Shown in pieces: positions 6,018 to 54,082 of a stretch of DNA of 64,000 nt. The position numbers and the translations under genes were made by a program. The first letter of the stretch is position 1; every line of letters starts with the position of its first letter. The notes below the pieces were generated by a model, which did no database searches, was not told the DNA's origin, and worked only from the letters and a program-made list of their open reading frames with translations. The stretch comes from Escherichia phage vB_EcoM_CRJP21, in sequence record OQ708376.1, one strand, 5' to 3'.

Positions 6018-8306
6018 ATGAATCTTACTCAATTGTTCAAAAAAAGCGACGAACTGGCAACATCTCTAGGTCATACATTCTTGACTATTGACCACGTAAG
6101 TGCCACAGTACTGACTATTGATAGCATCAAGAACGTATTTGAAGATATGAACATTGATGCAGACAAACTGCACAACCGCCTAATGAACTATCTTAAAAAT
6201 ACAACAGTTCCACATGCACCAAAAAGTGTTAAAGATGAAGACGCGAATCGCACTTCACTTCTAGTGAATCGCGTTGTACATGAGCTTTCTAAAAAATCAG
6301 TTATTGAACAACTAAAAAGTGATGATTTTTCGATTGATGCATATTTTGTTCTATTCGAATGTCTGTCTTTCCCTAACACAGCACTAGAAGCTGCGTTAAA
6401 AGAAGAAGGTGTTAGCTGTACTGAAGCTGCACGTGCATTACAGAAACACGTTGAGTCACTTGATAAGGGTATCAACTTACAAAGTATTAATGACGAACCG
6501 ATTGGAGATAAAAAAGTGGCCCAACAGCAGCAATCATCTAAACAAAAAGGTTTGGAAGACTATACAACGAATCTAACTGCTCTTGCAAAAGAAGGCAAAC
6601 TAGATCCTATGATTGGTCGCCAGAAAGAATTGTCTGCATTGATTGAGACTCTTGCTCGCAAAACCAAAAAGAATGCTATTCTCACTGGTGAAGCTGGTGT
6701 AGGTAAAACACAAATCATCGACGGGCTTGCACAAGCTATTGCTGATGGTAACGTACCTGAACACCTAAAAGACGTTGAAATTCTTTCACTAAATGTTGGT
6801 GCATTGACTGCTGGTACTAAGTATCGTGGTGAATTTGAAGAACGCATCGACAATTTGCTAAAAGAACTAAAGAAACGTGAAAATACTATTGTTTTCATTG
6901 ATGAAATTCATATTATGGTTGGGGCTGGTTCCGCAAGTAATGGTTCTATGGACATGAGCAATATGCTTAAGCCAGCACTTTCACGTGGTGAGATTCGTGT
7001 AATTGGTGCAACAACATATGATGAATATCGTAAAAATATCGAGAAAGATAGTGCATTAACTCGTCGTTTTATGAAAATTGACGTAGTTGAGCCGACAATT
7101 GATGAAACTCGTGCAATTGTTAATGGTTTGAAACCAACGTATGAAAAATTCCATAATGTTGAGTTCACATCTGATGCAATGGATGCTGTAATTTCTCTCA
7201 GTGATAAATTCCTGAAGAATAAGCACTTCCCAGATAAAGCAATTGATCTAATGGATGCTGCTGCGGCTAAAGTTCGTTCACGTGACAACAATAGTAAGCT
7301 TATTACTTCCAATTTGATTCAAGAAGTTGTTGCTGGTATTGCCAATTTGGATATCAACGTGGTTGCATGTACTGAAAGTGATCGTATGCGTAATCTACCA
7401 GATGCACTACGCTCACGTGTATACGGTCAAGAGGAAGCTATTCAAAAATTAGTTGATAACGTGATGGTAGCTCGTGCAGGACTGCGTGACAAATCTAGTG
7501 TTCAGGGTGCATTTATGTTTGTTGGACCATCTGGTACTGGTAAAACAGAAATTACCAAAGCATTAGCAGACGCAACTGGTGCGGAACTCATTCGCTTTGA
7601 TATGTCAGAATTTTCTCAAGAACATACTGTTTCTAAACTAATTGGTTCACCTCCAGGTTATGTTGGTCATGATTCTGGTAACGGTTTACTGTTGGATAAA
7701 ATTGAGCAGTTCCCTAATGCAGTACTGTTACTTGATGAAATTGAAAAAGCAGATCGTAAAGTACTACTAACCTTCCTACAGGTTTTGGATGAAGGTCGTC
7801 TGACTGGTTCTCAAGGTAAAACTGTATATTTTAATAACGTAACTGTTATTATGACTACAAACCTTGGTGCGGCTGATTCAACAAAGCGTAGCATTGGTAT
7901 GAGCGGTAGTGACACTGCACAGGACAAGGCAATTAAAGCATTCTTGCCACCAGAGTTTATTAACCGTATTGATAGTATCGTTACGTTTAAAGACCTAAGC
8001 AGTGAAGCTATTGACAGCATCATTGATAAGTTCATGGGTGGTTTGAATGAACAAGTCAAAGACCGTAATGTTAAAGTTACATTGACAAAAGCTGCACGTG
8101 AATGGCTTGCGAAAAATGGGGTAAAAGTTGGTATGGGTGCACGTCCAATGAAACGTACCATTGAACAAAACATTCGTGTACCACTAGCTAAAGAAATGTT
8201 GTGTGGTTCACTTGTGAATGGTGGTAACATTACATTTGATGTTATTGATGGTAAAATCGGTATTAAGCCGAAACGTACCAAAGCTGTAGATAAAGCACTA
8301 GTATAA
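6018..8306 (+). CDS. ClpA/ClpC-type Hsp100 AAA+ ATPase (two nucleotide-binding domains, no ClpB middle domain)
   Basis: Walker A GEAGVGKT and GPSGTGKT, Walker B IVFIDEIH and LLLDEIEKA, Clp-N-like N-terminus, SIGM tripeptide at the position of the ClpA IGL ClpP-docking loop. ORF track start at 5997 is GTG; ATG at 6018 has an AGGAGA RBS. Confidence 0.85.
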
Positions 8307-8343
8307 AAAAAGAAAAGGAGAGCATAATGCTCTCCTTTTTTTA
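8305..8343. terminator. Bidirectional rho-independent terminator
   Basis: A-run, stem GGAGAGC (8317-8323) / GCTCTCC (8329-8335), T-run; between the convergent ClpA-like and giant ORFs. Confidence 0.75.
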
Positions 8344-11300
8344 TTACTTAACTAATAATATATTTTTAATATCATTACCACTAACTTGTAGACTATCAGT
8401 GTATACTGAAAGATCTATAGTGTAACTATTTTGTGTGTAACGTTTTAACATATCATAATTACCTAAATTAATTCCATTGAAAGAATATGTAGTATTAAGT
8501 TTAAAATCATGTTCTGCACTATACATTACACCACGGAGTAAATTATTTGCATTTCTAACTTCAACTTTTTCATATCCAATCGATATAATATCATTCATGT
8601 TTGCGGCTGAACCGGATAAAACATTATTTCTAATACTATAAGGACTTATTGATTTAGGTTGAGAAACATAGGTTGTATTTTCTTCACTAATGGTTGTGAT
8701 GTTAGTAACAGTACCACCAACAACACCGATATACATACCGTCAACCATTGGGAATCCATAAACCCATATCCCTTCATTATTTCTAAACGGTTGAATAACA
8801 CTTGAATCATATTCGATAACGTTGATTTCTAAACTATCAGTCATTTTAGTTCTTGCCAATTCACTAAGAACTCCCGCACCCGTAATTGGTAAGTTATAAC
8901 CGTTATCGATAGTAATTCCATCAACATCAAATATTTCATTAGAGATTATCCAAACGTCAACGTCATCTGGTGTTATTCCGTCATTGTACTTACCACCATT
9001 TAAAGTAGTATCGTAGAAAACATCATAATTAATTACATCAATGGTGTAATTTCTATTTTGTTCATACAATTTAATACCATTCTTGACAAATTCAGGGTCA
9101 GCAAATGTTCTAACACGAACAATGTTCAATGCTAGAGGCTGTACTGGCTCATTTTGTTGTGCAAGAGTGATGTTATCATAACGGAGAACTGCACCAGTAC
9201 TCTCATCAATCAATTCAATCGTTTCCTTACCTGTATTTCTTACAGTGAATAGGATCGGAGTTGTATTGTTTTTGATGTTAGATACACGCAAGATTGTTTC
9301 CCATGTGTGATTTTGATATCTCACAAAATCTTCACCATCAGGAGTGAAAATCATCACCTTATCACCATCAGATAGGTCATTGTCAACTATTTCTGCTTCA
9401 GTTAAGCTATTAATAGATCTCACACGATAGAAATATTTTTCATCAAACTTCGATGTTGTTTTATTAATATCATTTTCAATCTTAGCATATGAAGGAATAC
9501 TTACAATTGCTTCTGTATGTTTATATGGATTGATAATTGCCATACCTTCAGTTTGATATCTGCTGTTATCACGTAATTGTACAAGAGATACATTGTCAAA
9601 CCCATATCCATCAACTGTAAATCTAATTTGACCTACATCACGCCCAGAAGGGTTTATGTCAGATATATCCACAATATAAGGATCAACTTCATCATCTTTA
9701 ACTTCCCATTTTATTGAAGAAGTTTGAGATTCCAATGCTAGGTTATCAAATGCATTCATATCATTGAAGTACTTAGCTTCAGTAATACTATCAAGTATAT
9801 ATTGATAATCAGAATACATTGGATTATTTTGATCTAGTGGTAAATCATCAAGATTTATTTCAGCTAGTTCAACCATTTCACCATTTGTGATAAAATAATC
9901 TTCCATGAAATCATCAATACTTTGTTCATCAGGTATACTTTGATATACACCGTTAACATTTAAGTAAACATATTTTCGTGGAATCATTGTAATTGCATAG
10001 ATATCAATTGGGGTCTTACTAAGAATCTCTTCAGCTTTTTCGTACTTATCAGTAGCGTCTTTGTCGAATAACCCTCTCATACCTGCTAATACGTGAATAG
10101 CATCAGTATAGAAACGGGTATCACCACCTACTTCATCATAACGATAAACATATACACCATACTCAACTTCAAGTTTAACTTTTACTTCATAGTCTGATGC
10201 GTCAGGATTTTTATCTTTAATTAATGAAATGTATTTTTGATACAATTCACTGCTTATTTCAAAATATCCATAGTTATAATCATTACTAGAAGAAAAGCCT
10301 AATGGAAGTCTAGTACTAGGATTGTCATTATAAGTAAGTCCACTAAATCCACATCCAACTTCATCGTGAATTTTCTCATCACTTATATCTTTATAAAGTT
10401 TCAAACGGTTTGCCAATGTGTTATACTGAACATATTGTCTAAGGTCAGTAAACATATCGTTATGCGTTGATTCTTTATAAACACGTTCCAATGTAGCAGT
10501 GAATTCATCAGTTGCTTCTAAATCTTCCGCATGGTCTTTATACCACTGGTTAACGCCATATGCTGTTCCTAGTGTTACATCCAATTCTGGATAGTAGATT
10601 TGCATTTGATAAGCAATAAGAAGATCGAAAGTTTCTTCACTATATTCTGGGAAAGAATATATATAACGTTGTAATTCATAGTTACTAACAGCATCCTTTT
10701 CATTGGATTGATATTTGTTATTAACACTTACTAATTCATTTATGCTTGCCAAATCTTCATTTGGTTTACACTGAATATTATCATAATGCATAATAATATC
10801 AATTTCTTGGAATCTTCTATTTGGTGTAACGAAATCACTTGGTAGTGAACCTACCTGTTCCCATTTTTGGGTAATTTCATTAAATTGAGCGTACTCATAA
10901 TCCCAAATATCTTTTTCAGTTTTGATCCAAGAACCATCAACGAAAATATATCCATTAGGATCTAAATCATTACATAGACCTTTTATTAAATCATCATCAG
11001 ATGTCTTTTGCTCTATTTGTGAACGAATTTTAGTTCTATAAGGTTTAACTTCTTCAAAATATTCAACAATTTGATTAATCAAATTATCGTTTGAATAGTT
11101 TTGAACTAATGATTGTTCCAAACCAACAATATAGATATATGATGTTTTAAATACCCAATCCACAACACTTTGTTCAACATGTACATATTTGACCATATCA
11201 AAAACAATTTCGCTTTGATGTAAATCGAAAGAATTTTTGAGTAAAGCTAGTGCTTTACGAACGTTGATTTCACGATTGCTTAGTGAACCATTATCATTAT

Positions 11301-18345: not shown

Positions 18346-18361
18346 TTGATTTATTTATGAT

Positions 18362-18388
18362 ATAAAAAAGGCGTTCCGAAGAACGCCC
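18362..18388 (-). terminator. Rho-independent terminator (minus strand)
   Basis: Stem GGCGTTC / GAACGCC with CGAA loop (UUCG on the minus-strand RNA) and a minus-strand T-run; between the gp6-like and giant genes. Confidence 0.6.
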
Positions 18389-21856: not shown

Positions 21857-21923
21857 AATTTATTCCTTTAAATCAGTAAAGTACTAGTTCAGTACTGGGA
21901 ATTATATATAGAAATATTTATTC

Positions 21924-21953
21924 AAAAAGAAAAGCACTCCGAAGAGTGCTTTT
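21924..21953 (-). terminator. Rho-independent terminator (minus strand)
   Basis: Stem AAAGCACTC / GAGTGCTTT with CGAA loop, A-run on plus strand (T-run on minus). Confidence 0.6.
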
Positions 21954-25570: not shown

Positions 25571-27820
25571 TTAATCAACTATACTATCGTGACGTTTGAG
25601 TGCACGAATTACAATTGCAGCTTGAATTTGTTGTGTAAAAGAACCACCTGCACCAAAATCATGAACAATTTTATTAACACGATAAATTGTTTGGTTAAAT
25701 GTGGTTGGTGTATTAATATCCAAAACACCAGTGTTATCATTTATTGATATTACTGGTTGTAATTTTAGTAATAGATACGCTTCAGATGTTATATAATTTG
25801 CTACATGATAATCATCTGGGTTAATTTCCATATCTTCACCATTAATTACTTGTTCTAGATATTGTAAGTAAGAGTAATCACTCCACCCTAACCAGTACGG
25901 GTCGCCTACTACACGCATATCGAGTTTACACAAAAAAGGTCTATTGTAATAGTTGTCACGTATTTTACGTCTATCCATTTCATATGTGCTGCTGTTATCG
26001 TTTAACGAAGCGGATAAAGTTGTTTCATTGTTAGTTGCTTCAGTTGGCATTGTGAACACTTCACCATAACGGTGACCAACACCATCAGTACCGCCATCGT
26101 TTTCTTCATAAGTGGTTACATAATCCTCAATATATTGAGGTAAAACATTGACTTGATAGTTATTATAACGGTCTTGTTCTTCTGCGTTACCAACCTGCAT
26201 TTGATTTTTTGCTAAAGTTTCAACTTCAGTTAACAATTGTTGTTGGGCTTGTGTTAACATCCCTCCTAAATCACGAGTTACACGTAAATCACTTGTTTTT
26301 GCCCATGCGTCTGGTATACTATTGTATTGTACACCTTGAATATTGAGTTCTTGGGATGTATGTGTACCTGCATGGTTCGCTACATCTTGTATCGGACCAG
26401 GGTTACGTGTAGTGGCTACGAAAAATTGCTGATCAAATTTCAAATCCAAATCAAGTATCTCACTATTAAGCCCACTAAATTGATAATTATAAGTTTTCAT
26501 GTTTATTTTTGGTTTTTGATCATTAGGATCTACGTATTTTTCTGCGTTCTCAAAAAAGTACTCAAATGTGAAATTTTCAGGTTGTAAATCCGATTCATGA
26601 ACAATATCACCTATTTTAAATCTAACAATATAAAAAATTACTTTATAAACAGAAGTATTACGATAATTATCAAAACCAACGTATTGTTTAACTGGTATAA
26701 TGTTTACAAATTGACGCACACTAGTACTATCATCGGCTTGTACAGTACATGTATCAATAACGTCATCAATAATTCGAGATATAGGAGTACTTGGGTTCCA
26801 TGAAAAGTTTTTAGAACCTTGTGCACCACTTTTAGTTGTTCCGGCCTCTGCCATTTGTTTAGAATCATAGTTTATAAACAAATCTTGCAAATCAGGTGCT
26901 ACTTTAAATTCGAAAAATTTACCTTCGGATAATTCACCAAATTTATATCTAAGATAACCATATTGTTGGTCAGCCATCTGATTTAATTTATCTTCTAAAT
27001 CAAAGCAGAAGTCACCAAAGTTTTCAGCAGTACAATTGAATGGTTCTTTTAAGGTCCATTCAATGTTATCAACTAAAGCTGCTCTATTATGAACTAAGTT
27101 CATAGTATACATCATAGTACTACCACTTTGTGAAGCACTTGCAGTAACACTATTAATTTTAACTGACCAGCGTCTTGTTGTTTCTGGGATAATTTCAGGT
27201 ATTCCATTTTTATTAAAGCCAATAAACTTTAATTCCAAGATCAATGGCAAGTCCATAAATTTATGATATCTAAGTTTGTTACTTAACGAAATTAATTCAT
27301 CATATAGACTCATACTATTATTTTCAGACATATTAAGTACTGCTGTATTAAAACAATAGTTTGTTGTCATTCCTGGTGTTGAAGGTCCAGCTTGTGTCAT
27401 TTGTACACTAGTGATATTATATTTGCCAGTAACACCACTTTCTGATATCACATGTCGTTGCACTTCTGCATCTGGGTAAAGCCAAAAGTTTTTAAAATCA
27501 TCTTTATCTAAGGCAAATAAACAAAAGTGCCAAGTTGGGTTATCATATTTCAATAATTTATTGTCATACGGTATTACAAACTGACTTAAATCGAGATCTT
27601 CATAAACTTGATCAACACTAGCACTTTGTTTTGGTAATGATACTACATTACTTACATTTGCTTTGTAATTATTTTTTGTAATAGTTTTTACATCATTTTG
27701 TAATGTATTTGCTGTAGCTTTCAAACTATCAAGTGCATTAGATGTGGTGGTTTTAGCCTTACCAGTAATACTTGTAATATCATTTTGAAAATTATCAACT
27801 GTACTTCGTAAATCTGCCAT
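25571..27820 (-). CDS. Hypothetical baseplate-associated protein (749 aa)
   Basis: Large ORF directly upstream of the gp5-like spike gene in the same operon; no motif recognised. Confidence 0.45.
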   Translation of the reverse strand: MADLRSTVDNFQNDITSITGKAKTTTSNALDSLKATANTLQNDVKTITKNNYKANVSNVVSLPKQSASVDQVYEDLDLSQFVIPYDNKLLKYDNPTWHFCLFALDKDDFKNFWLYPDAEVQRHVISESGVTGKYNITSVQMTQAGPSTPGMTTNYCFNTAVLNMSENNSMSLYDELISLSNKLRYHKFMDLPLILELKFIGFNKNGIPEIIPETTRRWSVKINSVTASASQSGSTMMYTMNLVHNRAALVDNIEWTLKEPFNCTAENFGDFCFDLEDKLNQMADQQYGYLRYKFGELSEGKFFEFKVAPDLQDLFINYDSKQMAEAGTTKSGAQGSKNFSWNPSTPISRIIDDVIDTCTVQADDSTSVRQFVNIIPVKQYVGFDNYRNTSVYKVIFYIVRFKIGDIVHESDLQPENFTFEYFFENAEKYVDPNDQKPKINMKTYNYQFSGLNSEILDLDLKFDQQFFVATTRNPGPIQDVANHAGTHTSQELNIQGVQYNSIPDAWAKTSDLRVTRDLGGMLTQAQQQLLTEVETLAKNQMQVGNAEEQDRYNNYQVNVLPQYIEDYVTTYEENDGGTDGVGHRYGEVFTMPTEATNNETTLSASLNDNSSTYEMDRRKIRDNYYNRPFLCKLDMRVVGDPYWLGWSDYSYLQYLEQVINGEDMEINPDDYHVANYITSEAYLLLKLQPVISINDNTGVLDINTPTTFNQTIYRVNKIVHDFGAGGSFTQQIQAAIVIRALKRHDSIVD

Positions 27821-27831
27821 ACGTTACTCCA

Positions 27832-28877: not shown

Positions 28878-28922
28878 CTTTTTGATTCTCCATAATAAGG
28901 GAACATTTGATGTATTTATACG

Positions 28923-28951
28923 TGGGACAAACTGCTTTTTGGTGCTATAAT
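28923..28951 (+). promoter_or_regulatory. Promoter: TGGGAC, 17-bp spacer, TGcTATAAT
   Basis: TGGGAC at 28923-28928, TATAAT at 28946-28951 with TG at 28943-28944; upstream of the gp55-like gene. Confidence 0.5.
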
Positions 28952-33022: not shown

Positions 33023-33027
33023 TTAAA

Positions 33028-33058
33028 GATAAAGGGAGCCTTAGCTCCCTTTTTTTAT
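33028..33058. terminator. Bidirectional rho-independent terminator
   Basis: Stem GGGAGC (33034-33039) / GCTCCC (33044-33049), loop CTTA, then T-run; overlaps the stop codon of the minus-strand gene. Confidence 0.7.
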
Positions 33059-33532: not shown

Positions 33533-33562
33533 AATTCCTCACCAAACTATTTGTTATCAAAA

Positions 33563-33570
33563 TATTTATA
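33563..33570 (-). promoter_or_regulatory. T4-type late promoter motif TATAAATA (minus strand)
   Basis: Plus-strand TATTTATA at 33563-33570, about 30 nt upstream of the endo VII-like start codon. Confidence 0.4.
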
Positions 33571-33623
33571 GATTAGTTATTTGCAATATTTTAAGTACTT
33601 AATGAATATTTTTATAAAAATAG

Positions 33624-33652
33624 TGAGACAACTTTAAAGTTTGTGCTATAAT
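33624..33652 (+). promoter_or_regulatory. Promoter: TGAGAC, 17-bp spacer, TGcTATAAT
   Basis: TGAGAC at 33624-33629, TATAAT at 33647-33652 with TG at 33644-33645; no protein-coding ORF downstream. Confidence 0.5.
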
Positions 33653-33659
33653 GTTTGTT

Positions 33660-34107
33660 GTAGTAATGACAATCCTGTTGAATGCAGAAATGCATATAAA
33701 TTAGAACCTGATCCTATCGAAAATGTAGATGGCAGATGAGCAGTTCAACAGTGCGATGAGCAAAAGAAACCCGTTAGATGTGGGCATAGTTTGAACCCCT
33801 CACGGCAATGCGGCTCAATAAAGAACTCCGATAAGCATACAGAGAGTTCCTCGATAGACATATAAGGATCGCACCTTACCAGATTTGCTAAGGGAGTTTA
33901 TTAAGTGATTTTAATAAACAGCCTGAAGTTTGATTGTATAGACTTTCAGGTGAGTGTCAGGATGATTAAGACTGACGACCGTTGCACATGACTGCGATAG
34001 AGAGAAACAGAGCAACCCGCTTTCGTTCTTAATATATTTTTAAGAAATTCGCAATACAATAAATGCTGAAACCATCAGCGTCAAGAAATAGAGACTTCAT
34101 TGTCTCT
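33660..34107 (+). ncRNA. Candidate structured non-coding RNA (about 450 nt, unknown class)
   Basis: Bounded by the promoter at 33624-33652 and an intrinsic terminator at 34090-34112; no ORF above about 20 codons on either strand; several internal hairpins; visibly less AT-rich than flanks. Confidence 0.35.
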
Positions 34108-34114
34108 TTTTTAT
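34088..34114 (+). terminator. Rho-independent terminator
   Basis: Stem AGAGAC (34090-34095) / GTCTCT (34102-34107), loop TTCATT, T-run 34108-34112. Confidence 0.7.
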
Positions 34115-34329
34115 TGTCTTCATTCCCCTGCGGGGGGATGAAAATGTCCTCAACAAATCCCGTCAAGTATTAAATCTTTTAAAGTTCTTTATAATTAATT
34201 TAATTAAATGAATATGAGTTACGTAGTAACGAATATTCTTCAGCTAACGAATGAAATGAGTTAGATGAATCCAATAATATTAAAATTAATCCTTTCATAA
34301 TTCAATTCAAATAATTCTGTAGTTTAAAA

Positions 34330-34360
34330 CCAAAAAAAAAACCAGCAACAATGTGCTGGC
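34330..34360 (-). terminator. Rho-independent terminator (minus strand)
   Basis: Stem CCAGCA / TGCTGG (34342-34359) preceded on the plus strand by a 10-A run (T-run on minus), just downstream of the minus-strand operon. Confidence 0.65.
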
Positions 34361-34370
34361 TATATGAAAA

Positions 34371-34580
34371 TTAGTGCTTCTCGTTTTGTTTTTTAATTTT
34401 TTTATTAAAAGACTTAACTAATAAGTCTCTATCTATTAATGGCATATTAAGGAGTGTTCCATAGTCAATGTTATCCATATATACAGAACATTCCATTAGT
34501 GCATTTTTGATTTCTGACTTATTCAGTTCTATCTCCTTCAGTACTTCTTGTATTTCTTCAGGAGATGACTGGAGAAGCAT
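34371..34580 (-). CDS. Hypothetical protein (69 aa)
   Basis: Small ORF overlapping the stop of the upstream gene at 34580; charged, helix-like composition. Confidence 0.4.
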   Translation of the reverse strand: MLLQSSPEEIQEVLKEIELNKSEIKNALMECSVYMDNIDYGTLLNMPLIDRDLLVKSFNKKIKKQNEKH

Positions 34581-35416
34581 TACTCGAAAAAATGACTAGG
34601 ATCATATTTTAGTCCATCAATTTCCCATTGATGATTACATCCATCACATTCTACTTCCATACTATGAGATACACCAATTTCAAGTACTTCATCCATTTTT
34701 TCACGAATTAGTTTAAGTACTCCCTTCGATTGTTGTCCAAGCCATTCATTAATAAATTCTTTTTCAACTACTTCATCACCATCTGGTGTTATAATTTTTG
34801 CAATAACTCCACCAATCATATCGAAGTTAAGTTGAGCCATGTTTTCAAATACTTCAGAAAATATTTTTACTTTTTCATCTTTATCAATATCAGCAGTTTC
34901 AAGAAACTTAGTCTTCTGCTGCTCACTGAACATGCGTTCAGCAAACGATGAATATTCTTTCCATGTCAGTGGTCTAAATTCTAAACGTAGTCCATTATCT
35001 AAATCAATTGATGGGATTTCTTCAAATGCTTGTGCAGTTTCAAGAAGATATGATAGATTACGTTCAAATCGACCTTCTTTTTCACATTCAGGACATACAA
35101 CGTTAATATCATATGTTTCTTCTTTAGAAGCAACTTTAATAGCAATAAGAAGCATTTCAACGTCATTTACATACAACTCATCAGCGTCAATTACATTAGG
35201 AACACAGTTTTCAATAACACGGGATACTGCATCTCCGTTTAGTAACATATCGGGGGTATTAAGTGTCATTTCATCACGTGCACTACGTGCACAAACTCCA
35301 CATTTGACACCTTTTGGACCTAGAACTCCTTCTTTATAAGGAATAACGCCGTTTGTAACTAACTTAGTACTGATCTCTTCAATTTTAGTGTACTTAGCAA
35401 GTGGATTCATAGCCAT
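34580..35416 (-). CDS. Zinc-ribbon protein with three CxxC pairs, unknown function
   Basis: CGVC, CPEC and CDGC motifs in a 278-aa ORF. Confidence 0.5.
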   Translation of the reverse strand: MAMNPLAKYTKIEEISTKLVTNGVIPYKEGVLGPKGVKCGVCARSARDEMTLNTPDMLLNGDAVSRVIENCVPNVIDADELYVNDVEMLLIAIKVASKEETYDINVVCPECEKEGRFERNLSYLLETAQAFEEIPSIDLDNGLRLEFRPLTWKEYSSFAERMFSEQQKTKFLETADIDKDEKVKIFSEVFENMAQLNFDMIGGVIAKIITPDGDEVVEKEFINEWLGQQSKGVLKLIREKMDEVLEIGVSHSMEVECDGCNHQWEIDGLKYDPSHFFE

Positions 35417-35546
35417 TTTATTAAATCTCCATGTAATAAATGTGTTTTAGTATTTATAAGACTAAAAAAGATTAAATTAAACTAATTTTTATATTCTCTA
35501 TAGTTTCATAAATATTTCTATAATACATCTATTAAAAGGGAATGTT

Positions 35547-37751
35547 ATGGCTGGAAATACAAGTGATTACCTACTCCAGCAGTTGGTTAATCAAACTAAA
35601 GATAACAACGATAGTTTGAGTGCTATTCGTGAGTTATTGGCTGAAAATATAAAAAATGATAGAAAGAAATCCGGTTCTAAAAGTGGAAAACGTAATGGAA
35701 GTAATTCATCAAGTACTGGAAACCGTGGCTCTCGAACAAATAACAAAGCTGATGATGGTAAAGAATTTGGAAAAATATTCAAATCATTATCATCTGAAGT
35801 ATCGAATGTCGGCAAAACTATGATGAGTACGTCTGCAAACGTTAGCAATGTTGTAAACTCACTAGGAATGAGTGCATCTTCATTTGCTGGTTCATTAGCA
35901 ATGATCCCAGGTCCAGTTGGTGCAGCAGCATCTGCATTCAAATTGGTCGCTGACGCTGGTTTAGCAGTTTATAATGTGTTAAATGCACAGCTTGAAGTTT
36001 ATAATAGAATAAACAGTGCTGGTGTCGCTCTATCTGAAGGTTACGGCTCCATATTAAAAGGTGCTGGTGCATCAATGATGAGTATTGATGCATTTGGTGA
36101 AGCATTACAAACTCATAGTGCCGTTGTTGCACAATTAGATGGTGCATATGGTGATGGTGTTTCTACATTTGGTAAATTATTGGGTACTGTGCAACAAGCA
36201 CAAAATCAATTAGGTTTATATGGTGTTTCTCAAAAAACATTAACTGATTTAACTGCACGTAATATTAAATTCCAAAAGCAATTTGGTGGAAGAGAAATGT
36301 TACGTAGTATGGATCAAGCAAAAAGTACTGAACAGTTTATCATGAGCATGACTAAGTTCAGTAAAAGCATGGGTGAGTCAGTTGATGCACTATTAAATAA
36401 AACACAAAACTTAGATAAATCATTAGACACACGTTCAATGCAAATCGCATTACAAAACTATTCTGGATTATCTAGTAAAGCAGCAGTTGCAACATCAAAA
36501 GCATTTAACGAAGCGGCTGCCAGTATGGGTGATGCTGGTGCAGATTTTCTACGTTTAATTTCACATCGTTTAACTATTGGTGGAGTACCAGATGATTTAT
36601 TGACTCCAGTACTGAACCAATTTGCTGATTTAGGTGAGAACTTGGTACGTAGTGGTGTTACTGATTCACAAGAAATTCGCCGTCAACAATTGGAATTTGT
36701 TAAAAAGAACAAAGAACTAATAAAGCAAGATTTATTAAATCAGATACAATTAGGAAACACTACAGCAGCAACCTTCAACCAACAGCTACTTGATATGGAA
36801 GCTGCGATTAATGATCCTAAGAGTCAACCAGCAGATAAACTAACACAATTCACGGATAGATTCAATAGATGGATTAGTAAAGAATTTACTGAACCATTTA
36901 ATAAAATGTATGCAGATACACAAAATTCTATTGCGGATTACCTTACTGATATTGCAGACCGTACTGATGGTGCATGGGAATTTATCGGAGAGTTAGCACT
37001 TGATGGTTTTGGTTTGGTTCCTATTGCGAAAGATGCAGTTGCGTATTTGGATAGGATTGGTGGTGAGTTTGAGCAGTGGTTAGAAGGGTTAGGTACTGAA
37101 ATTTTTGGTAGTGGATATAATAAAGTTTCAGAAGCATTTGATAGCTTTATGAATAACCTAATGGATCTTCCTGGTAAACTTTGGGATTCTGTTAAAGGTT
37201 GGTTTGGTGGTTCAGACGACAAAGTAAAAGTAGAAAACAATTCTGTTACCGATGGTGCAGAAAAAGTTAATAATTATTTTGAAGAAAAAATGAATTCATT
37301 TGGTGATTATATTTCTAGTTCATTTGATGGTTTTTTAAAATGGAATTCAAGTAGAAACTTTAAACAACCAAAACCCCTTGATGAATCAGTTGCTGAAAAA
37401 CTTATTAGTAGTGGTCTTGAAAATAAGCCAAGAGCTACTGCGAGAATTGAAAAATCTGAACATGTTGCACCATATGTAACGATAACTCCAAAAACATTTG
37501 ACAAATCAGCATGGGGACCAAATGATCTACCAATTCAAGCTGAACCGGACGATTATGAGTCCATGAAAGCGATGATAAATAGTGGTAGTAGTATGGCAAA
37601 TGCTAATAATAATGCCACAATATCAGAAGACATGAAAGAGTTACTTAAAAAACTTGCTGATGTTAATGAGCAATCTCTATCTGCTGTACAACAGACAAAT
37701 AACTATCTAAGAACTATCTCTGAAAACACTCAAGGTGAGAGAAACAGTTAA
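35547..37751 (+). CDS. Hypothetical protein (734 aa), possible internal virion / tape-measure-like protein
   Basis: Basic Ser/Gly/Lys/Arg-rich N-terminus, then Ala/Gly-rich hydrophobic segment and long helical Q/L/K-rich stretches; immediately upstream of portal. Confidence 0.5.
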   Translation: MAGNTSDYLLQQLVNQTKDNNDSLSAIRELLAENIKNDRKKSGSKSGKRNGSNSSSTGNRGSRTNNKADDGKEFGKIFKSLSSEVSNVGKTMMSTSANVSNVVNSLGMSASSFAGSLAMIPGPVGAAASAFKLVADAGLAVYNVLNAQLEVYNRINSAGVALSEGYGSILKGAGASMMSIDAFGEALQTHSAVVAQLDGAYGDGVSTFGKLLGTVQQAQNQLGLYGVSQKTLTDLTARNIKFQKQFGGREMLRSMDQAKSTEQFIMSMTKFSKSMGESVDALLNKTQNLDKSLDTRSMQIALQNYSGLSSKAAVATSKAFNEAAASMGDAGADFLRLISHRLTIGGVPDDLLTPVLNQFADLGENLVRSGVTDSQEIRRQQLEFVKKNKELIKQDLLNQIQLGNTTAATFNQQLLDMEAAINDPKSQPADKLTQFTDRFNRWISKEFTEPFNKMYADTQNSIADYLTDIADRTDGAWEFIGELALDGFGLVPIAKDAVAYLDRIGGEFEQWLEGLGTEIFGSGYNKVSEAFDSFMNNLMDLPGKLWDSVKGWFGGSDDKVKVENNSVTDGAEKVNNYFEEKMNSFGDYISSSFDGFLKWNSSRNFKQPKPLDESVAEKLISSGLENKPRATARIEKSEHVAPYVTITPKTFDKSAWGPNDLPIQAEPDDYESMKAMINSGSSMANANNNATISEDMKELLKKLADVNEQSLSAVQQTNNYLRTISENTQGERNS

Positions 37752-37762
37752 GGACGAAAATA

Positions 37763-39502
37763 ATGAGTTGGAAACGACATATGACAGTGGGAAGGTCTAA
37801 ACTATCGACCATCCCAAATCAGTCCAGTAATAGCAATAAATCAACAGGAACGAAAACAAATTTCGCTTCCTATCTTCCTGTTGTATATAATGGATTGGCA
37901 AATCGTACTGAGCGTTATAGTCAGTATGAGCAAATGGACCAAGATCCTGAAATTAGAACTGCATTGAATATAATTGCTGACTTTTGTACTCAAAGTACTG
38001 AAGATTTTGGTTTACCATATAAAATCAAATATAAAGATGATATTGGTGATACTGAAGTAACGACTATTGAAGATCGTTTAGATGCATGGACTGAACAAAA
38101 TGATTTTAAAACACGAATGTATGAAATTGTGCGTGGTCTTCTGAAATATGGTGATCAATTTTTCATTCGAGATCCAGAAACATTCGATTGGTATTGGGTA
38201 AGTCCCAAAAATGTTGAGCAAGTATTTGTTAACGAAGCCACTGGTAAAACACCAGTAATTTATTATATACGTGACGTATCATTAAATTTGAAAGATAAAG
38301 TTTTTAGTAACCTTCAAGTAGGATTTGATAAAACCGCTTATCCAGGAGCTATTCCAACAACAATGGGTGGTGGTGGTTCAGTAGCTGCTGGTGGTGCATC
38401 TGGTTTTACAAGTCAAGGAAATACGGCTGACCCATTCAGTACTAACGGTCAATTAGACGTTATTCCTGTTGGTGCAGAACACGTAATTCATCTAACACTA
38501 AATACAGGACAAGATGGGGTATGGCCTTTTGGTACTAGTATACTTGAGGACGTATTTAAAGTCTATAAGCAAAAAGAACTTCTGGAAGATAGTATCATAA
38601 TTTATCGTGTACAACGTGCACCTGAGCGTCGTGTATTTAAAATTGATGTTGGTGATATGCAAGCACACCAAGCGATGGCTTATGTTGAAAGATTTAAAAA
38701 TGAAATCCACCAGCGTAGAATACCTTCAAACAAAGGTGGAAGTACTTCACTAATGGATGCAGCGTATAATCCATTAAGCATTTTAGAAGACTACTTTTTC
38801 CCACAAACTTCTGAAGGTCGTGGTTCAGATGTTCAAACATTACCAGGCGGTGATAACTTAGGACAAATTGATGACTTACGTTATTTCAATAATAAATTGA
38901 TTCGTGGTCTTCAAATACCAGCTTCATATCTACCACAAGGTCCAGATGATGGTGGTGTTTCATTATTTGGTGATGGTGCTACACAAGCTATGGCAAGTGA
39001 ATTGCGATTCAATAATCAATGTATGCGTTATCAACGTTTAGTTGCAAAACATTTTGATGCTGAATTCAAAAGATTTATGGTTAAAAATGGATATAACATT
39101 AGTACTTCATCTTTTGAAGTTATTATGAATCCACCTATTAACTTAGCTTCTTATCGTAAAGCTGAACTAGATGCTAAACTAATTAATACATATCTTCCTC
39201 TTAATGACTTGCCTTATATGGCAAAACAAACAATTCTTGAAAAAATGGGCTTTTCTAAAGCTGATATTGTTAAGAATGAACAAATGTGGTTACAAGAGAA
39301 TCCACAAGATGGTTCCCAACCTTCTGGTGGTGAAGAAGATTCCGCAGGATTGCAGTCTGTTGGTATTGATGCTCCAAATGATCCTGGAATGGATCTTGGT
39401 ATTGATGGAGAAGGTAATTTGGAAAGTGCTGATGCCGAATACCAAGAGCAACAGAGTGGAAGTGGTGGTTTCGACCCTAATAATTTAGGCAATTCTTTTT
39501 AA
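37763..39502 (+). CDS. gp20: Portal protein, gp20-like
   Basis: Strong by-eye match to T4 gp20 core (IIYRVQRAPERRVF vs VVIYRITRAPDRRVW; TLPGGDNLGQIDDLRYF vs TLPGADNTGNMEDIRWF). Confidence 0.85.
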   Translation: MSWKRHMTVGRSKLSTIPNQSSNSNKSTGTKTNFASYLPVVYNGLANRTERYSQYEQMDQDPEIRTALNIIADFCTQSTEDFGLPYKIKYKDDIGDTEVTTIEDRLDAWTEQNDFKTRMYEIVRGLLKYGDQFFIRDPETFDWYWVSPKNVEQVFVNEATGKTPVIYYIRDVSLNLKDKVFSNLQVGFDKTAYPGAIPTTMGGGGSVAAGGASGFTSQGNTADPFSTNGQLDVIPVGAEHVIHLTLNTGQDGVWPFGTSILEDVFKVYKQKELLEDSIIIYRVQRAPERRVFKIDVGDMQAHQAMAYVERFKNEIHQRRIPSNKGGSTSLMDAAYNPLSILEDYFFPQTSEGRGSDVQTLPGGDNLGQIDDLRYFNNKLIRGLQIPASYLPQGPDDGGVSLFGDGATQAMASELRFNNQCMRYQRLVAKHFDAEFKRFMVKNGYNISTSSFEVIMNPPINLASYRKAELDAKLINTYLPLNDLPYMAKQTILEKMGFSKADIVKNEQMWLQENPQDGSQPSGGEEDSAGLQSVGIDAPNDPGMDLGIDGEGNLESADAEYQEQQSGSGGFDPNNLGNSF

Positions 39503-39575
39503 ACATAAATAACAATGTATAAGAATGAGGGTTTATTTTTACCCTCATTTATAATGCATATTTCAAGGAGATCAA

Positions 39576-39803
39576 ATGTTAAAGGACATCTTTGAATCTA
39601 GCAGTGATTCAATGTACGACCCTGAAGATGATCAGAACGTATATAAAATTACTGATTCCAGAAAACCGAAACTAACATTACAAGTATTAAACAACTTAAG
39701 AAAGTACCGTGAATTTAAAGCACATGAAGAACAACGCCGCAAAAATGTGGTTGCAGTTGTTTATGCCGCTGCACCAACAGGTGACGGTTCTGGGTTAATG
39801 TAA
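39576..39803 (+). CDS. Small head-module protein (75 aa), possible prohead core protein
   Basis: Small ORF between portal and the acidic/protease genes, the position of gp67/gp68 in T4; no motif. Confidence 0.35.
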   Translation: MLKDIFESSSDSMYDPEDDQNVYKITDSRKPKLTLQVLNNLRKYREFKAHEEQRRKNVVAVVYAAAPTGDGSGLM

Positions 39804-39904
39804 ACCGAAAATCGCACTTTTTAAAGCTTTTAAAAAAGGCGATTTTATTCAGTACTAAATAATATCATACTTTATACGAATGTAATATATCTATGGAGGA
39901 TATA

Positions 39905-40753
39905 ATGGCGAATTTAAAACTACTACAAGAAGCAATTGCGGCGTTTGCAAATGGCGAACAAGATATTGCTGATAAAAAAATGCGTAAGTATTTCGTTGAG
40001 CAAGCTCAAGAAATTAACAAACAACTAGAAGAAAGCATGGAAGATGAAGACGACGATGAAGATTGTGAAGTCGAAGTTAAAGTCAAAGATGAAGAAAAGC
40101 TTGACGAAGATTTTGATGTACAACCAGACGAAGGTCTAAATGCTGAAATCGAATACACCCTTGGTGAAGAAGATGAAAGTGCAGAAGAAGAAGTTGAATT
40201 CTCTGCTGATGCAGATGGTGACGGTGAAGACGATGTTGACGTTGAAGTGAAAGCTGATGCTGATGTTCCTTCCGAAGACCAATGGGAATCAATCCAAGAT
40301 GCTTTCCGTGGCCTACAACAAATGTTTGATGAAATCGGTGACGGTGAAGTTGATCTAGATTCTGAAGAAGAAGTAGAAGATAGCGAAGAAGAAGTTGGTG
40401 TTGACGGTGACGACGAATTTGCTGATGTTGAATTCGGCGATGAAAAATTCGGTGAATCCTTCAAACTAGAAAAAGTTGCTCCAGTTGATAAGAAAGAAAA
40501 AGCTGGCACTCATTCCAAATCTCCAGTAGCACCAGAAGCTAAATCTCCAGTAGCAGGAGCAGAGCCAGTTAAATTCGCTAAGAAAACTGACCAAGCCCCA
40601 CTACTAGACCTAGATGATAAATCTGTTCTACCAAAAGATAGCCTAGATCTTGGTAAAAATGCTCGCGGTGAAATGAAAGATGTTAAAGCACCAAAAACTA
40701 CTGCATCTAATTCTAAATCACCACTAAGCAAAGCACAACCTAAACTAAAATAA
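39905..40753 (+). CDS. Hyper-acidic protein, candidate prohead core/scaffold component
   Basis: Long Asp/Glu runs (EDEDDDEDCEVEVKVKDEE..., GDGEDDVDVEV...) then Pro/Lys/Ala-rich tail; GGAGG RBS precedes the ATG at 39905 (track start 39893). Confidence 0.55.
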   Translation: MANLKLLQEAIAAFANGEQDIADKKMRKYFVEQAQEINKQLEESMEDEDDDEDCEVEVKVKDEEKLDEDFDVQPDEGLNAEIEYTLGEEDESAEEEVEFSADADGDGEDDVDVEVKADADVPSEDQWESIQDAFRGLQQMFDEIGDGEVDLDSEEEVEDSEEEVGVDGDDEFADVEFGDEKFGESFKLEKVAPVDKKEKAGTHSKSPVAPEAKSPVAGAEPVKFAKKTDQAPLLDLDDKSVLPKDSLDLGKNARGEMKDVKAPKTTASNSKSPLSKAQPKLK

Positions 40754-43887: not shown

Positions 43888-43919
43888 AATAGGGACTCTT
43901 CGGAGTCCCTTTTCTTTTT
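43888..43919 (+). terminator. Rho-independent terminator
   Basis: Stem GGGACTC / GAGTCCC with TTCG loop, followed by a T-run. Confidence 0.8.
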
Positions 43920-43931
43920 ATTAAAAAACCC

Positions 43932-43960
43932 TTGACACAATGTTCTGGAATGTATATAAT
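43932..43960 (+). promoter_or_regulatory. Consensus sigma70-type promoter TTGACA-17-TATAAT
   Basis: TTGACA at 43932-43937, exactly 17-bp spacer, TATAAT at 43955-43960; about 30 nt upstream of the 43993 ORF. Confidence 0.65.
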
Positions 43961-43992
43961 ACGCACATACACGAAAATAAAGAGACAAAATT

Positions 43993-45090
43993 ATGCCAAA
44001 CGTAAGTATCACCAAAGAAGAGTTTATCAGCAAAATGACTGCTAAGTATGGTGAATTTGATTTCAGTACTTTAGTATTCAAAGCAAGTAAGACAACAGTG
44101 AAATGTAACAAGTGTGGAAAAGAAAACACCAAACCTGCACTTCGTCACATTGCATGTACATGTGCATCATGTTATTCAAACATGTCACAACGTTCAAACA
44201 ACGACACATTCATCAGTACTGTAGAAACTAAATTTGGAAAAGATAAATTCAAATTTGATAAACTAAATTACACTAATGCTATATCAAAAGTAACAATTTT
44301 CTGCACAGATGAAGATCACAATGATTACTTTGAAATTACACCCAATAAATTTCTTTCTGGTAAAGGATGCCCCGTATGTAATAAAAATGAAGCATACAGT
44401 ACTGAAGAGTTCAAAGAAAAAGTAAAAGATAATTATGGTGATTTATTGGATTTAACTAACACGGTGTATGTAAATCAAAAAACTAAAGTAACTGTGTATT
44501 GTAACGCAGGTAATCATGAATGGACAGTTGATCCAAAAACTTTACTTGTTGGTAAGACTGGATGTGGTACATGCTCCGGTAAAGGCGGTCGAAGTACTGA
44601 ACGTTTCATTGAACTTGTGTCGCCTATCCATAACCATAAGTATGATTATAGCTTGGTGGATTACAAGACTAGTGATGAACATGTGGATATTATTTGTCCT
44701 GAACATGGTGTCTTTAAACAAATACCCAAATCTCATATGGCAGGAAGAGGATGTCCATCATGTGGTGAGTATGGTTATCAACCATCAAAGCCTGGATATT
44801 TCTATGTACAAAAACTATCTAATAACTCAAAAGTCGTTTACAAATACGGAATTACCGGAGACATGAAGAGACGAATTCATGAACAAAGTCGCAATTCTGA
44901 GTTCGAGCATGAAGTACTGGTAGAACGTTACTTTGAGGATGGTAATAAACCATTATTATTGGAAAAGTTTATCAAGCAATACATTGAAAGTGGTGTTGTA
45001 AGTACTGAAGAGTTACCGTCAGGATTTACTGAAACATTTGATGCTAAGTATCTTGAAAGTGTTTTAGAAATTGTAAATACTTTTAAGTAA
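43993..45090 (+). CDS. Multi-zinc-ribbon protein with C-terminal T5orf172 / GIY-YIG-like domain
   Basis: Repeated CxxC pairs (CNKCG, CTCASC, CPVCN, GCGTCSG, CPSCG), then GYFYV...YKYGIT...R...E...SGFTETF resembling the T5orf172 fold. Confidence 0.55.
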   Translation: MPNVSITKEEFISKMTAKYGEFDFSTLVFKASKTTVKCNKCGKENTKPALRHIACTCASCYSNMSQRSNNDTFISTVETKFGKDKFKFDKLNYTNAISKVTIFCTDEDHNDYFEITPNKFLSGKGCPVCNKNEAYSTEEFKEKVKDNYGDLLDLTNTVYVNQKTKVTVYCNAGNHEWTVDPKTLLVGKTGCGTCSGKGGRSTERFIELVSPIHNHKYDYSLVDYKTSDEHVDIICPEHGVFKQIPKSHMAGRGCPSCGEYGYQPSKPGYFYVQKLSNNSKVVYKYGITGDMKRRIHEQSRNSEFEHEVLVERYFEDGNKPLLLEKFIKQYIESGVVSTEELPSGFTETFDAKYLESVLEIVNTFK

Positions 45091-53022: not shown

Positions 53023-53322
53023 ATGAAAATTAAAATGATTAATGATTACGTTCTTGTTCGACAAATTGAAGCACAGAATAAAAGTACTGGTGGTATTATT
53101 CTAGGTAATGTTGAACCACCATGTATTGGGATGGTAATTTCCGTTGGTCCAGGTAAAATTCTTCCGAACGGACAACTAGCAGAACATAATATTAAAGAAG
53201 GTGATATGGTTGTGTTTGGTCGTTCATCTTTGAACACACCACTGACTGAAGATCTTGGTGGGGGCGAAGATACATATTATGTAATGAAAATCGAAGAGAT
53301 TTTTGGTAAGAAAAATGGCTAA
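53023..53322 (+). CDS. GroES-type co-chaperonin (gp31-like)
   Basis: MKIKMINDYVLVRQIE...STGGIILG...GDMVVF parallels GroES; GGAGG RBS 8 nt upstream. The track ORF 52960..53322 shares this reading frame, but its first 21 codons run through the stop of the zinc-ribbon gene, so the ATG at 53023 (just behind the RBS) is taken as the start. Confidence 0.75.
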   Translation: MKIKMINDYVLVRQIEAQNKSTGGIILGNVEPPCIGMVISVGPGKILPNGQLAEHNIKEGDMVVFGRSSLNTPLTEDLGGGEDTYYVMKIEEIFGKKNG

Positions 53323-54040
53323 AAAGAAATTTATTCCATTTTGGATGGTCCCTGCTCACTGGGGACTTTCTGGAAAGGCAAAAGAGATAGCTAAAGCATA
53401 CTACTACAATGATGATTATGAAGCTGATATGAAAGTTGCTGAATTGACATATCTAACTCCATATGAAGTTGAAGTGGCCCAATTGGATATTAAAAAGAAA
53501 TATAGCGTAATTGGAGATTTGGAATATCTAATTGCTGTACTTGATGTTGAACTAAAATATTCTAAAATTACTCGTGAACAGTATGATGTTAAAGTTCTTG
53601 ATGCAAAACTAAGTATTGGAGTTATTACAGAAAAAGAATATGATATGGAAATCATTGAGTTAATGCCAGAAGGTGATGAAAAAAGGCTTAAGGCTATTGA
53701 ATTTGCATATCGTTACGATGAAATCACACAAAGTGAATATTCTAAGGAAATATACACACTTCGTAAAGAACCTTGGATTGATTTGGATGTTGTTCTTGAT
53801 CCTGAAACTAATGAAGTTGAGTTTGTATTTGACTATAATGAATATTTCTGGAAAAAGTTGAAAGCTGAAGGTCATCCAGGAAATGATGAAGAAGAAATTA
53901 TCGATAACTTTGTGAGAGACTTGGGGCGTAAACTTGCTACGGATGATTTCAGTGATGATTACGACACAAAGCTGGTGAGTGCGAACGAAGGATTAGACAA
54001 GCTACCTGGTTTGCCTGAAGGATTTCGTTCATATAGATAA
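53303..54040 (+). CDS. Hypothetical protein (245 aa) with internal repeats
   Basis: ORF overlapping the GroES-like stop; repeated I/E-I-T-x-E/Q-Y motifs; acidic. Confidence 0.45.
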   Translation: MVRKMAKKKFIPFWMVPAHWGLSGKAKEIAKAYYYNDDYEADMKVAELTYLTPYEVEVAQLDIKKKYSVIGDLEYLIAVLDVELKYSKITREQYDVKVLDAKLSIGVITEKEYDMEIIELMPEGDEKRLKAIEFAYRYDEITQSEYSKEIYTLRKEPWIDLDVVLDPETNEVEFVFDYNEYFWKKLKAEGHPGNDEEEIIDNFVRDLGRKLATDDFSDDYDTKLVSANEGLDKLPGLPEGFRSYR

Positions 54041-54043
54041 CAT

Positions 54044-54082
54044 ATAAAAAAAAAGGAGAGCAAATGCTCTCCTTTTCTTTTG
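54044..54082. terminator. Bidirectional rho-independent terminator
   Basis: A-run, stem GGAGAGC (54055-54061) / GCTCTCC (54066-54072), T-run; stem nearly identical to the terminator at 8317-8335. Confidence 0.75.

Follow-up and report, generated by a model that had tools for sequence, protein, structure and literature searches.

Hairpins at gene ends of an Asteriusvirus jumbo coliphage: probable intrinsic terminators with UUCG caps between co-directional genes and GGAG-type stems at convergent junctions

We analysed a stretch of 64,000 nucleotides of Escherichia phage vB_EcoM_CRJP21 (sequence record OQ708376.1; this whole stretch is hereafter called the window) with respect to five short hairpins located at 8317, 18370, 21931, 43892 and 54055. 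The window originates from an Asteriusvirus jumbo coliphage of the 121Q/PBECO4/G17 group. A 3-kb sample shows 99.9% identity to Escherichia phage vB_EcoM_G17, 121Q, PBECO4 and about 20 others, and the window aligns in reverse orientation to G17 146462-210269 with 99.4-99.7% identity, one replaced segment excepted. Its gene content represents the structural and replication core, comprising a ClpA-like ATPase, a 3333-amino-acid virion protein, baseplate proteins, a late sigma factor, portal, capsid, DNA polymerase and terminase, and the G+C content of the genome is 34.5%. The initial annotation had placed five hairpins at these positions, and all of them are present in the sequence. It had further regarded them as a small family of repeated terminator elements that possibly act as RNA processing sites as well. 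We find that the five hairpins are very probably ordinary Rho-independent (intrinsic) terminators, a reading based on sequence anatomy and comparison.

Results

Hairpins between convergent genes

Two of the hairpins share the same 7-bp stem and are located between convergent genes. The first (8317-8335, in DNA GGAGAGC-ATAAT-GCTCTCC) sits between the stop codons of the ClpA-like ATPase gene (+ strand, ending at 8306) and of the gene for the 3333-amino-acid virion protein (- strand, ending at 8344). Together with its flanking tracts it forms a predicted bidirectional intrinsic terminator serving both strands (8313..8339, AAAA-GGAGAGC-AUAAU-GCUCUCC-UUUU). The second (54055-54072, GGAGAGC-AAAT-GCTCTCC) belongs to another predicted bidirectional terminator on both strands (54051..54076, AAAA-GGAGAGC-AAAU-GCUCUCC-UUUU), flanked by the convergent virion-protein genes 53303-54040 (+) and 54090-54779 (-), for which a Pfam search returned no family. 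Each stem lies between convergent stop codons, bordered by an A-tract and, at its opposite end, by a T-tract, so the earlier description of both hairpins as bidirectional fits the sequence. GGAGAGC and GCTCTCC each occur twice in the window, all within the two hairpins, and GGAGAGC occurs twice in the 350-kb G17 genome.

Folding with ViennaRNA gave equal energies on both strands, -16.2 kcal/mol for 8317 and -15.9 kcal/mol for 54055, with A-U pairs included. RNAfold adds an A-U pair to the 8317 stem, resulting in 8 bp and a 3-nt loop, while the terminator scan counted 12 pairs on the - strand and the G17 annotation gives a value of -13.0. The tails read TTTTTTT (+) and TTTTCTTTTTTT (-) at 8317, and TTTTCTTTT (+) and TTTTTTTTT (-) at 54055. 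A T-tract interrupted by a single C (TTTTCTTTT) is the tail of many otherwise unrelated G17 terminators, and is also found at 8317 (-), 54055, 21931 and 43892.

The 54055 loop (54062-54065) is AAAT in the window, and ATTT, its exact reverse complement, in G17 (156398-156401) and 121Q, with the same stem. This difference could be a palindrome-mediated template-switch flip or the result of two point changes.

UUCG-capped hairpins between co-directional genes

The remaining three hairpins are predicted co-directional terminators closed by UUCG (TTCG/CGAA in DNA), as initially annotated, with UUCG on the transcribed strand. Hairpin 18370 (18369..18388, - strand, GGGCGUUC-UUCG-GAACGCCU plus UUUUUU) follows a gp6-like baseplate wedge gene, and the gene for the giant virion protein comes next. 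Hairpin 21931 (21930..21953, - strand, AAAAGCACUC-UUCG-GAGUGCUUUU plus CUUUUU) follows a gp25-like gene and precedes a baseplate wedge gene, and hairpin 43892 (43891..43910, + strand, AGGGACUC-UUCG-GAGUCCCU plus UUUCUUUUU) follows the major capsid protein gene. Their DNA tails are TTTTTT at 18370 and TTTTCTTTTT at both 21931 and 43892. On the transcribed strand, C(UUCG)G is seen in all three: this is the - strand for the first two, whose + strand shows CGAA, and the + strand for 43892. The three stems (GGGCGUUC, AGCACUC and GGGACUC) are unrelated; the loop alone is common to them.

All five hairpins display the anatomy of intrinsic terminators, with stems of 7-8 bp containing 4-5 G-C pairs, loops of 3-5 nt and folding energies of -9 to -16 kcal/mol. 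They lie 3-45 nt past a stop codon with the T-tract on the transcribed strand, and the UUCG-capped ones are oriented with their flanking genes. All five sites are carried in the G17 record (MK327931) as 'putative transcriptional terminator, determined by ARNOLD' (ARNold method of annotation: PMC6563267), and both GGAGAGC loci are annotated as terminators in the UE-S1 record (ON568341) too. In the window, terminator-like sites are about twice as frequent as in dinucleotide shuffles (17, 17 and 16 found versus 7.7, 9.0 and 8.9 expected).

For a genome-wide inventory we used the entire G17 genome (350 kb) with its 93 unique annotated terminators, 73 of which are non-redundant after collapsing repeat families. 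UUCG accounts for 12 of the 44 four-nucleotide loops in G17, and for 5 of 33 after the collapse versus 0.1 expected from composition (P ~1e-7). The C(UUCG)G sense orientation was found in all cases, 3/3 in the window and 12/12 in G17, and CGAA was observed on the annotated strand in 0/44 loops. The capsid locus was analysed in relatives with 64-92% protein identity. A hairpin of -10 kcal/mol or lower was found downstream of the capsid gene in 70 of the 70 related loci with enough downstream sequence, versus 47% of same-size coding controls (P 1e-20), and the stems all differ. Among the 72 loci with a readable loop, UUCG ranked first (25), with GNRA in 15 and UUAG in 8.

At the sites orthologous to 18370, three of four lineages have UUCG on different stems (GGCAUC in two of them) and one lineage has an AAU loop. 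Within the genus, the stem at 21931 is constant and the loop drifts between UUCG, UUCU and ACUU. A substitution in BF17 at this site gives a U-G wobble in the RNA of the transcribed - strand; on the other strand it would be a C-A mismatch. This pattern fits selection at the RNA level for a very stable cap that would have been chosen independently at each site. The preference for UUCG is real but already known, as UUCG hairpins were discovered in phage T4 mRNA in 1988 (reviewed in PMC4371310).

Orthologues of the GGAGAGC hairpins

The similarity between 8317 and 54055 is limited to about 35 nt, that is, the A-tract, the stem and the T-tract. Their 100-nt flanks score 6-11, which is background (null: 9.6 +/- 2.0). 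Orthologous loci were gathered with neighbouring proteins as anchors and from intermediate relatives. At the 8317 (ClpA) locus, all Asteriusvirus lineages and Klebsiella phage RaK2 carry the GGAGAGC stem, with loops that differ nearly everywhere (AUAAU, AUAUU, AAAU, AUU, AUAU, AUAAAA), and other lineages carry GGAGCC or AGAGGGC. At the 54055 locus, GGAGAGC is confined to Asteriusvirus and found in most of its members. The stem is GGAGAAC in phage A4, CBB, GAP32, Yersinia fHe-Yen9-04, Serratia BF and several metagenomic lineages, GGAGAAUCA in RaK2, and GGACGCA, GGACAAC or GGGAGAAC in others. A hairpin was present at both loci in every genus and all relatives examined, and among at least 20 near-identical genomes we found no presence/absence polymorphism of the GGAGAGC elements.

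In the orthologue alignments, 98.1% of cells are paired at 8317 (6 pairs changed on both sides) and 94.8% at 54055 (5 pairs changed on both sides), and the slid-partner control for both alignments yielded 45-76%. These numbers point to selection on both helices, with the loops free to change. Each hairpin has occupied its own orthologous position since before the genera split, giving two separate orthologue series. From GGAGAAC, its ancestral form, the 54055 stem reached identity with that of 8317 by one A-U to G-C pair change within Asteriusvirus. Because the orthologue histories are separate and a single compensatory change is enough, the identity of the two stems needs no copying.

GGAG-type stems at convergent junctions

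In G17, 7 of 8 convergent-junction terminators have a stem that starts with an A-tract plus GG(G)AG, versus 0 of 65 co-directional ones (Fisher P 5e-9); a single co-directional GGGAG stem, lacking the A-run, is located at G17 100414. An independent scan with our own open reading frame (ORF) calls, restricted to perfect stems, gave 7:1 versus 1:28 (P 6e-6). Within the window, 4/4 convergent junctions are GGAG-type (GGAGCC at 2571, GGAGAGC at 8317, GGGAGC at 33033 and GGAGAGC at 54055) and 0/10 co-directional terminators are. The members outside the window lie at G17 126068, 222792 and 286449, and divergent junctions do not carry such hairpins.

The two further members in the window are likewise predicted to be bidirectional terminators on both strands. 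One (2567..2592, AAAAAGGAGCC-ACAC-GGCUCCUUUUU, hairpin 2571-2588) separates the convergent genes 1466-2566 (+) and 2596-3060 (-). It has a near-twin at G17 286449 (GGAGCC-ACAC versus GGAGCC-ACAA), which makes a second identical-stem pair of this class, and orthologue stems at its junction are GGAGCC, GGAGGC and GGUAGCC. The other (33031..33052, AAAGGGAGC-CUUA-GCUCCCUUU, hairpin 33033-33050) lies at the junction of the convergent genes 30875-33022 (+) and 33041-33532 (-); at the equivalent junction RaK2 has GGGGAGC. RaK2 and other lineages mostly stay in the same sequence space at orthologous convergent junctions (GGAGCC, GGAGGC, GGGGAGC), with some exceptions. All four hairpins, 8317, 54055, 2571 and 33033, combine A-tract/T-tract flanks, a symmetric Watson-Crick stem, convergent genes and equal folding energy on both strands.

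At the 2567 junction of Yersinia, Serratia, CBB and GAP32-type relatives, another inverted repeat (TGGCAGAC...GTCTGCCA plus T-tract) replaces the GGAG-type hairpin. This repeat seems to extend into the 3' end of the convergent MutT-like gene.

Identical 7-bp stems at two loci are unsurprising, because the class confines the sequence to an A-tract, GG(G)AG, 1-4 nt ... CUCC and a U-tract. Given this constraint, we estimate that 0.3-1.3 identical pairs would be expected among the 21 pairs of GGAG-type stems. The spacing from GGAG to CUCC varies between 8 and 11 nt, which argues for a constraint on the stem base and not for a dimeric protein site. The likeness of 8317 and 54055 is thus best read, from these comparisons, as a shared lineage-specific design and not as copying.

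Inventory of stems in G17 and occurrence in other phages

When the 73 non-redundant G17 terminators are compared with each other, a stem arm of at least 7 nt is common to 4 pairs, the GGAGAGC pair included; position-preserving column shuffles give 1.15-1.28 (P 0.03-0.05). The excess is modest, and about one pair is expected by chance. Pure chance was partly rejected as the cause of stem sharing, which is better explained by the constraint of the GGAG class.

The genome-wide hairpin inventory that had been proposed as a check did reveal multi-copy families at other sites of the genome; the five hairpins are not members of these. One family consists of 12 copies of a GGGTTGAC-TTCG-GTCAGCCC terminator in the early-gene region of G17, outside the window (MK327931 positions 1461, 4213, 7482, 10771, 43897, 45311, 46593, 51089, 52173, 53782, 53965 and 57207). 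Its cassette is laid out as GGG-TTGACT-TCGG-TCAGCCC-TTTTTGC-TATAAT, so that the -35 box (TTGACT) lies inside the UUCG-capped stem; most copies have a -10 box (TATAAT or TATTAT) 17-18 nt further downstream. The cassette resembles a described subclass of PeSL elements in which the stem-loop overlaps the -35 box; we did not find a description of it for the Asteriusvirus group. The second family, GCCAGTAC-NNN-GTACTGGC (GCCAGUAC), has 8-9 copies at G17 26183-40232 behind tandem paralogous genes that encode an RCC1-like 'DNA condensation protein'. Its stems are conserved and nearly every loop is different (TCT, ACT, CAA, TCA, AGA, CTT), which suggests that the stem is selected and the loop free.

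Outside this group, Vibrio phage QD01, an unrelated phage of the Straboviridae (the T4-like family), contains 32 nt (PV785814 161358-161389) that are 100% identical to the 54055 terminator including the A- and T-tracts, and this copy likewise sits exactly between two convergent genes. The pattern AAAGGAGAGC-N3-6-GCTCTCCTTT was found in at least 120 IMG/VR stretches whose flanks form at least 70 unrelated clusters. Among the IMG/VR matches listed, 47 of the 75 classifiable ones are located at convergent junctions, and UUCG/CGAA is the commonest loop. The recurrence in unrelated contexts reflects convergence on a good bidirectional terminator, whose sequence is generic.

Promoters, a mosaic breakpoint and insertions beside the hairpins

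Downstream of 43892, by 22 nt, lies a perfect sigma-70 consensus promoter (43932..43960, + strand, TTGACA-17-TATAAT, 12/12 match). Terminator and promoter form a cassette (43891-43960) ahead of the variable ORF 43993-45090. Identity between the window and G17 extends as far as the final T of the 43892 tail and resumes about 600 bp further on, inside this ORF; the mosaic segment (43911-44560) covers the promoter and the 5' half of the ORF. The window version of the ORF has a longer N-terminal part, with a treble-clef zinc-finger match barely above the Pfam cut-off and a weak T5orf172 match. Among the five hairpins, 43892 alone coincides with such an indel or replacement between close relatives, as is typical of PeSL breakpoints.

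The window contains two perfect 12/12 sigma-70 promoters (TTGACA-17/18-TATAAT) at 5718-5747 (+) and 43932-43960 (+), where by our estimate composition predicts about 0.2. Both are intergenic and face the next gene, the ClpA-like gene and ORF 43993, respectively.

ATAAATA motifs that resemble late promoters are located next to the other two UUCG-capped hairpins. One (18352..18358, - strand) lies about 10 nt downstream of the 18370 T-tract, and the other (21915..21921, - strand) just downstream of the 21931 terminator, also about 10 nt past the T-tract, where it is conserved across the genus. Both match the late-gene motif of the related phages CBB and GAP32 (PMC5259590), which suggests a promoter role.

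Some relatives carry an insertion ahead of the baseplate wedge gene, past the 21931 terminator and its late-promoter motif (window 21857-21905). A 765-bp ORF (gene 584, 'protein associated with group I intron') is found there in 121Q (KM507819 314100-314864), JP4, JNE01 and TH47. Upstream of it, 121Q retains the 21931 hairpin; the window, G17 and most other relatives are without this ORF. The 5' untranslated region (UTR) of the baseplate wedge gene also contains the palindromic element CCCAGTACTGAACTAGTACTTTACTG (window 21868-21897, - strand), which is kept in all Asteriusvirus lineages compared and may be a 5'-UTR hairpin.

Discussion

Our analysis strongly favours the interpretation that the five hairpins are intrinsic terminators of the usual kind. 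Our inference of actual termination and of 3'-end protection draws on the anatomy and position of the hairpins, their strand bias and their conservation. On this view the RNA polymerase of the host, joined at late genes by the phage late sigma factor (encoded at 29009-29848), would transcribe into the hairpin and the U-tract; the G+C-rich stem and the U-tract behind it would then free the RNA. The mRNA would keep the hairpin at its 3' end and so be shielded against 3' exonucleases. At the convergent junctions 8317 and 54055, one Watson-Crick palindrome with A- and T-tracts would terminate transcription equivalently on both strands. The hairpins 18370, 21931 and 43892 would function as one-way terminators between co-directional genes, each with a C(UUCG)G cap and followed by the promoter of the next gene.

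A role at the RNA level is also indicated by G-U pairs: across the 93 G17 terminators, 47 were counted on the annotated strand versus 5 on the opposite strand, although ARNold, by selecting whichever strand forms the better RNA hairpin, biases this asymmetry in part. Together with the BF17 wobble at the 21931 site, it fits RNA-level selection.

Besides this bias, several points weigh against the interpretation as ordinary terminators. The literature search for the Asteriusvirus group yielded ARNold predictions only, and no transcript, 3'-end or termination data. For perfectly palindromic hairpins, covariation cannot tell an RNA-level from a DNA-level role. ViennaRNA energies for UUCG versus CGAA loops show no difference for 21931 and 43892 and 0.6 kcal/mol for 18370; since the program does not distinguish the two loops, the argument of extra stability of UUCG rests on the literature. 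Simple thermodynamics fails to account for the restriction of GGAG-type stems to convergent junctions, so something beyond the generic terminator model may act there. Finally, the GGAG rule was absent from a small sample of unrelated phages (about 1 Mb of IMG/VR loci, non-seed hairpins), with 1/13 convergent versus 7/15 co-directional cases. Since it was not seen in unrelated phages, the rule looks lineage-specific. A universal rule for bidirectional terminators was considered and is unsupported by these loci, the numbers being small.

The restriction of GGAG-type stems to convergent junctions is the only non-textbook point of our analysis, and we did not find a prior description of it. Conceivably, though we consider it unlikely, the sequence A-tract+GG(G)AG...CUCC+U-tract is a signal that the RaK2/121Q lineage reserves for colliding transcription units, read by a phage or host factor, or it serves as a recombination linker of inverted gene blocks. 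The look-alike hairpins would then represent a functional class. Candidate readers might be a GGAG-specific nuclease, an anti-Shine-Dalgarno-like interaction or a termination or collision factor.

Could the GGAGAGC hairpins instead be kept alike by concerted evolution, through gene conversion or template switching between palindromes, perhaps across the whole GGAG class? We judge this very unlikely. The change from GGAGAAC to GGAGAGC at 54055 did arrive at the exact 8317 sequence within Asteriusvirus, the GGAGCC pair at window 2571 and G17 286449 has near-same loops, and the reverse-complemented 54055 loop of G17 and 121Q (AUUU versus AAAU) is a flip typical of palindrome-mediated template switching. 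However, one compensatory pair change suffices for identity, and the number of identical pairs estimated above is expected anyway. In every lineage the loops differ between the 8317 and 54055 loci. The stems can differ as well, as in phage A4 (GGAGAAC at one locus, GGAGAGCC at the other), which shows that the loci are not tied to each other.

That the GGAGAGC hairpins, and perhaps the UUCG-capped ones, are spread copies of a repeated or mobile palindromic element, similar to repetitive extragenic palindromic (REP) sequences or PeSL elements, is hardly credible. Two stems identical over 7 bp with similar A- and T-tracts would be expected of such copies, stem sharing in G17 is modestly above chance (4 pairs versus 1.2), the two true multi-copy families (TTGAC-UUCG, 12 copies, and GCCAGUAC, 8-9 copies) do exist in this genome, and common descent of the GGAG-type stems at 7 convergent junctions is conceivable in principle. 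Yet the GGAGAGC stem has two copies in 350 kb, with similarity ending at about 35 nt. In all genera examined a hairpin occupies both of its loci, the loops being independent and the stems showing compensatory changes, and GGAGAAC was the ancestral stem at 54055. The UUCG stems are unrelated to each other, and the near-identical genomes lack presence/absence polymorphism. These observations, with the background similarity of the flanks and the separate orthologue series, lead us to reject a duplicated or mobile element for the GGAGAGC pair and largely refute this explanation overall. They likewise argue against the 'small family of repeated terminator elements' proposed in the initial annotation.

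We also attach very little probability to a function at the DNA level, in which the palindromes would be binding sites of dimeric proteins, cruciforms or recombination sites at the borders of opposed gene blocks, and not RNA terminators. The limits of covariation in perfect palindromes leave room for it. Moreover, the GGAG-type hairpins are located exactly at strand-switch boundaries, 43892 is an exact mosaic breakpoint, and PeSL stem-loops have been proposed as recombination sites in T4-like phages (PMC2839356). But the spacing of the GGAG/CTCC half-sites (8 to at least 11 nt, with loops of 3 to 6 nt) suits the base of a stem and not a fixed dimeric site. A- and T-tracts are present in every case, all directly after stop codons, co-directional terminators have a strong sense-strand G-U bias, and divergent junctions are without such hairpins.

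RNase III requires roughly 20 bp of stem, and the stems here fall short of that, with 7-12 bp or, if A-U pairs are counted, no more than 16. This speaks against RNA processing, the second role suggested initially, in which an endoribonuclease (RNase III, RNase E or a T4 RegB-like GGAG-specific enzyme) would cut the hairpins or GGAG and thereby make the 3' ends. T4 RegB does cut within GGAG (PMC1702504), the signature of the convergent class, and the AU-rich flanks are of the kind preferred by RNase E, but RegB needs single-stranded GGAG in early mRNAs, whereas here GGAG is paired in a stable stem and the genes are late structural ones, and a scan of the whole window at Rfam gathering thresholds matched no RNA family; processing is therefore a most improbable explanation.

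The observation behind the initial annotation is correct, but the elements are standard and already annotated, that phage mRNA hairpins are capped by UUCG is a textbook fact dating from 1988, and the finding as given is of little importance. Hairpins maintained by selection are reasonable candidates for compact terminator parts in E. coli, bidirectional ones included, once their activity has been measured. Should the GGAG rule reflect a specific mechanism, it would be relevant to the way in which large phage genomes deal with head-on transcription. With the PeSL-type cassettes found at other sites of the genome, a shuffling mechanism known from T4-like phages is extended to the jumbo phages of the Asteriusvirus group.

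How do these hairpins compare with known systems? Like REP palindromes and miniature inverted-repeat transposable elements (MITEs), they are short, intergenic and located at gene 3' ends, but with two copies, no extended consensus and stable orthologous positions they do not fit such elements. PeSL cassettes (PMC2839356, PMC4122927) are matched by 43891-43960, where a stem-loop, a perfect sigma-70 promoter, a mosaic breakpoint and a variable neighbouring ORF coincide in one intergenic region. Unlike PeSLs, however, the five hairpins are not multi-copy, their stems being unique or present twice, and four of them have no adjacent sigma-70 consensus. As in the C(UUCG)G hairpins of T4 mRNA, UUCG closed by C-G on the sense strand of intercistronic hairpins is strongly over-represented in a T4-related phage. 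In contrast to T4, the Asteriusvirus loops cap terminators in a distant jumbo relative, and the loop is favoured but replaceable (UUCU, ACUU or AAU in relatives). With the bidirectional terminators of convergent genes (PMC12207403), 8317 and 54055 share the symmetric hairpin, A-tract/T-tract flanks, convergent stop codons and equal stability on both strands, while in this lineage such terminators are limited to GG(G)AG-type stems, a restriction not seen in our small sample of unrelated phages. The closest match is offered by the intrinsic terminators that ARNold predicts for E. coli and its phages, with a G+C-rich stem of 7-9 bp, a loop of 3-5 nt and a U-tract just after stop codons, presumably acting on the host RNA polymerase. 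Nothing essential separates our hairpins from these; the existing annotation is a prediction, and the sequence classes are newly analysed here.

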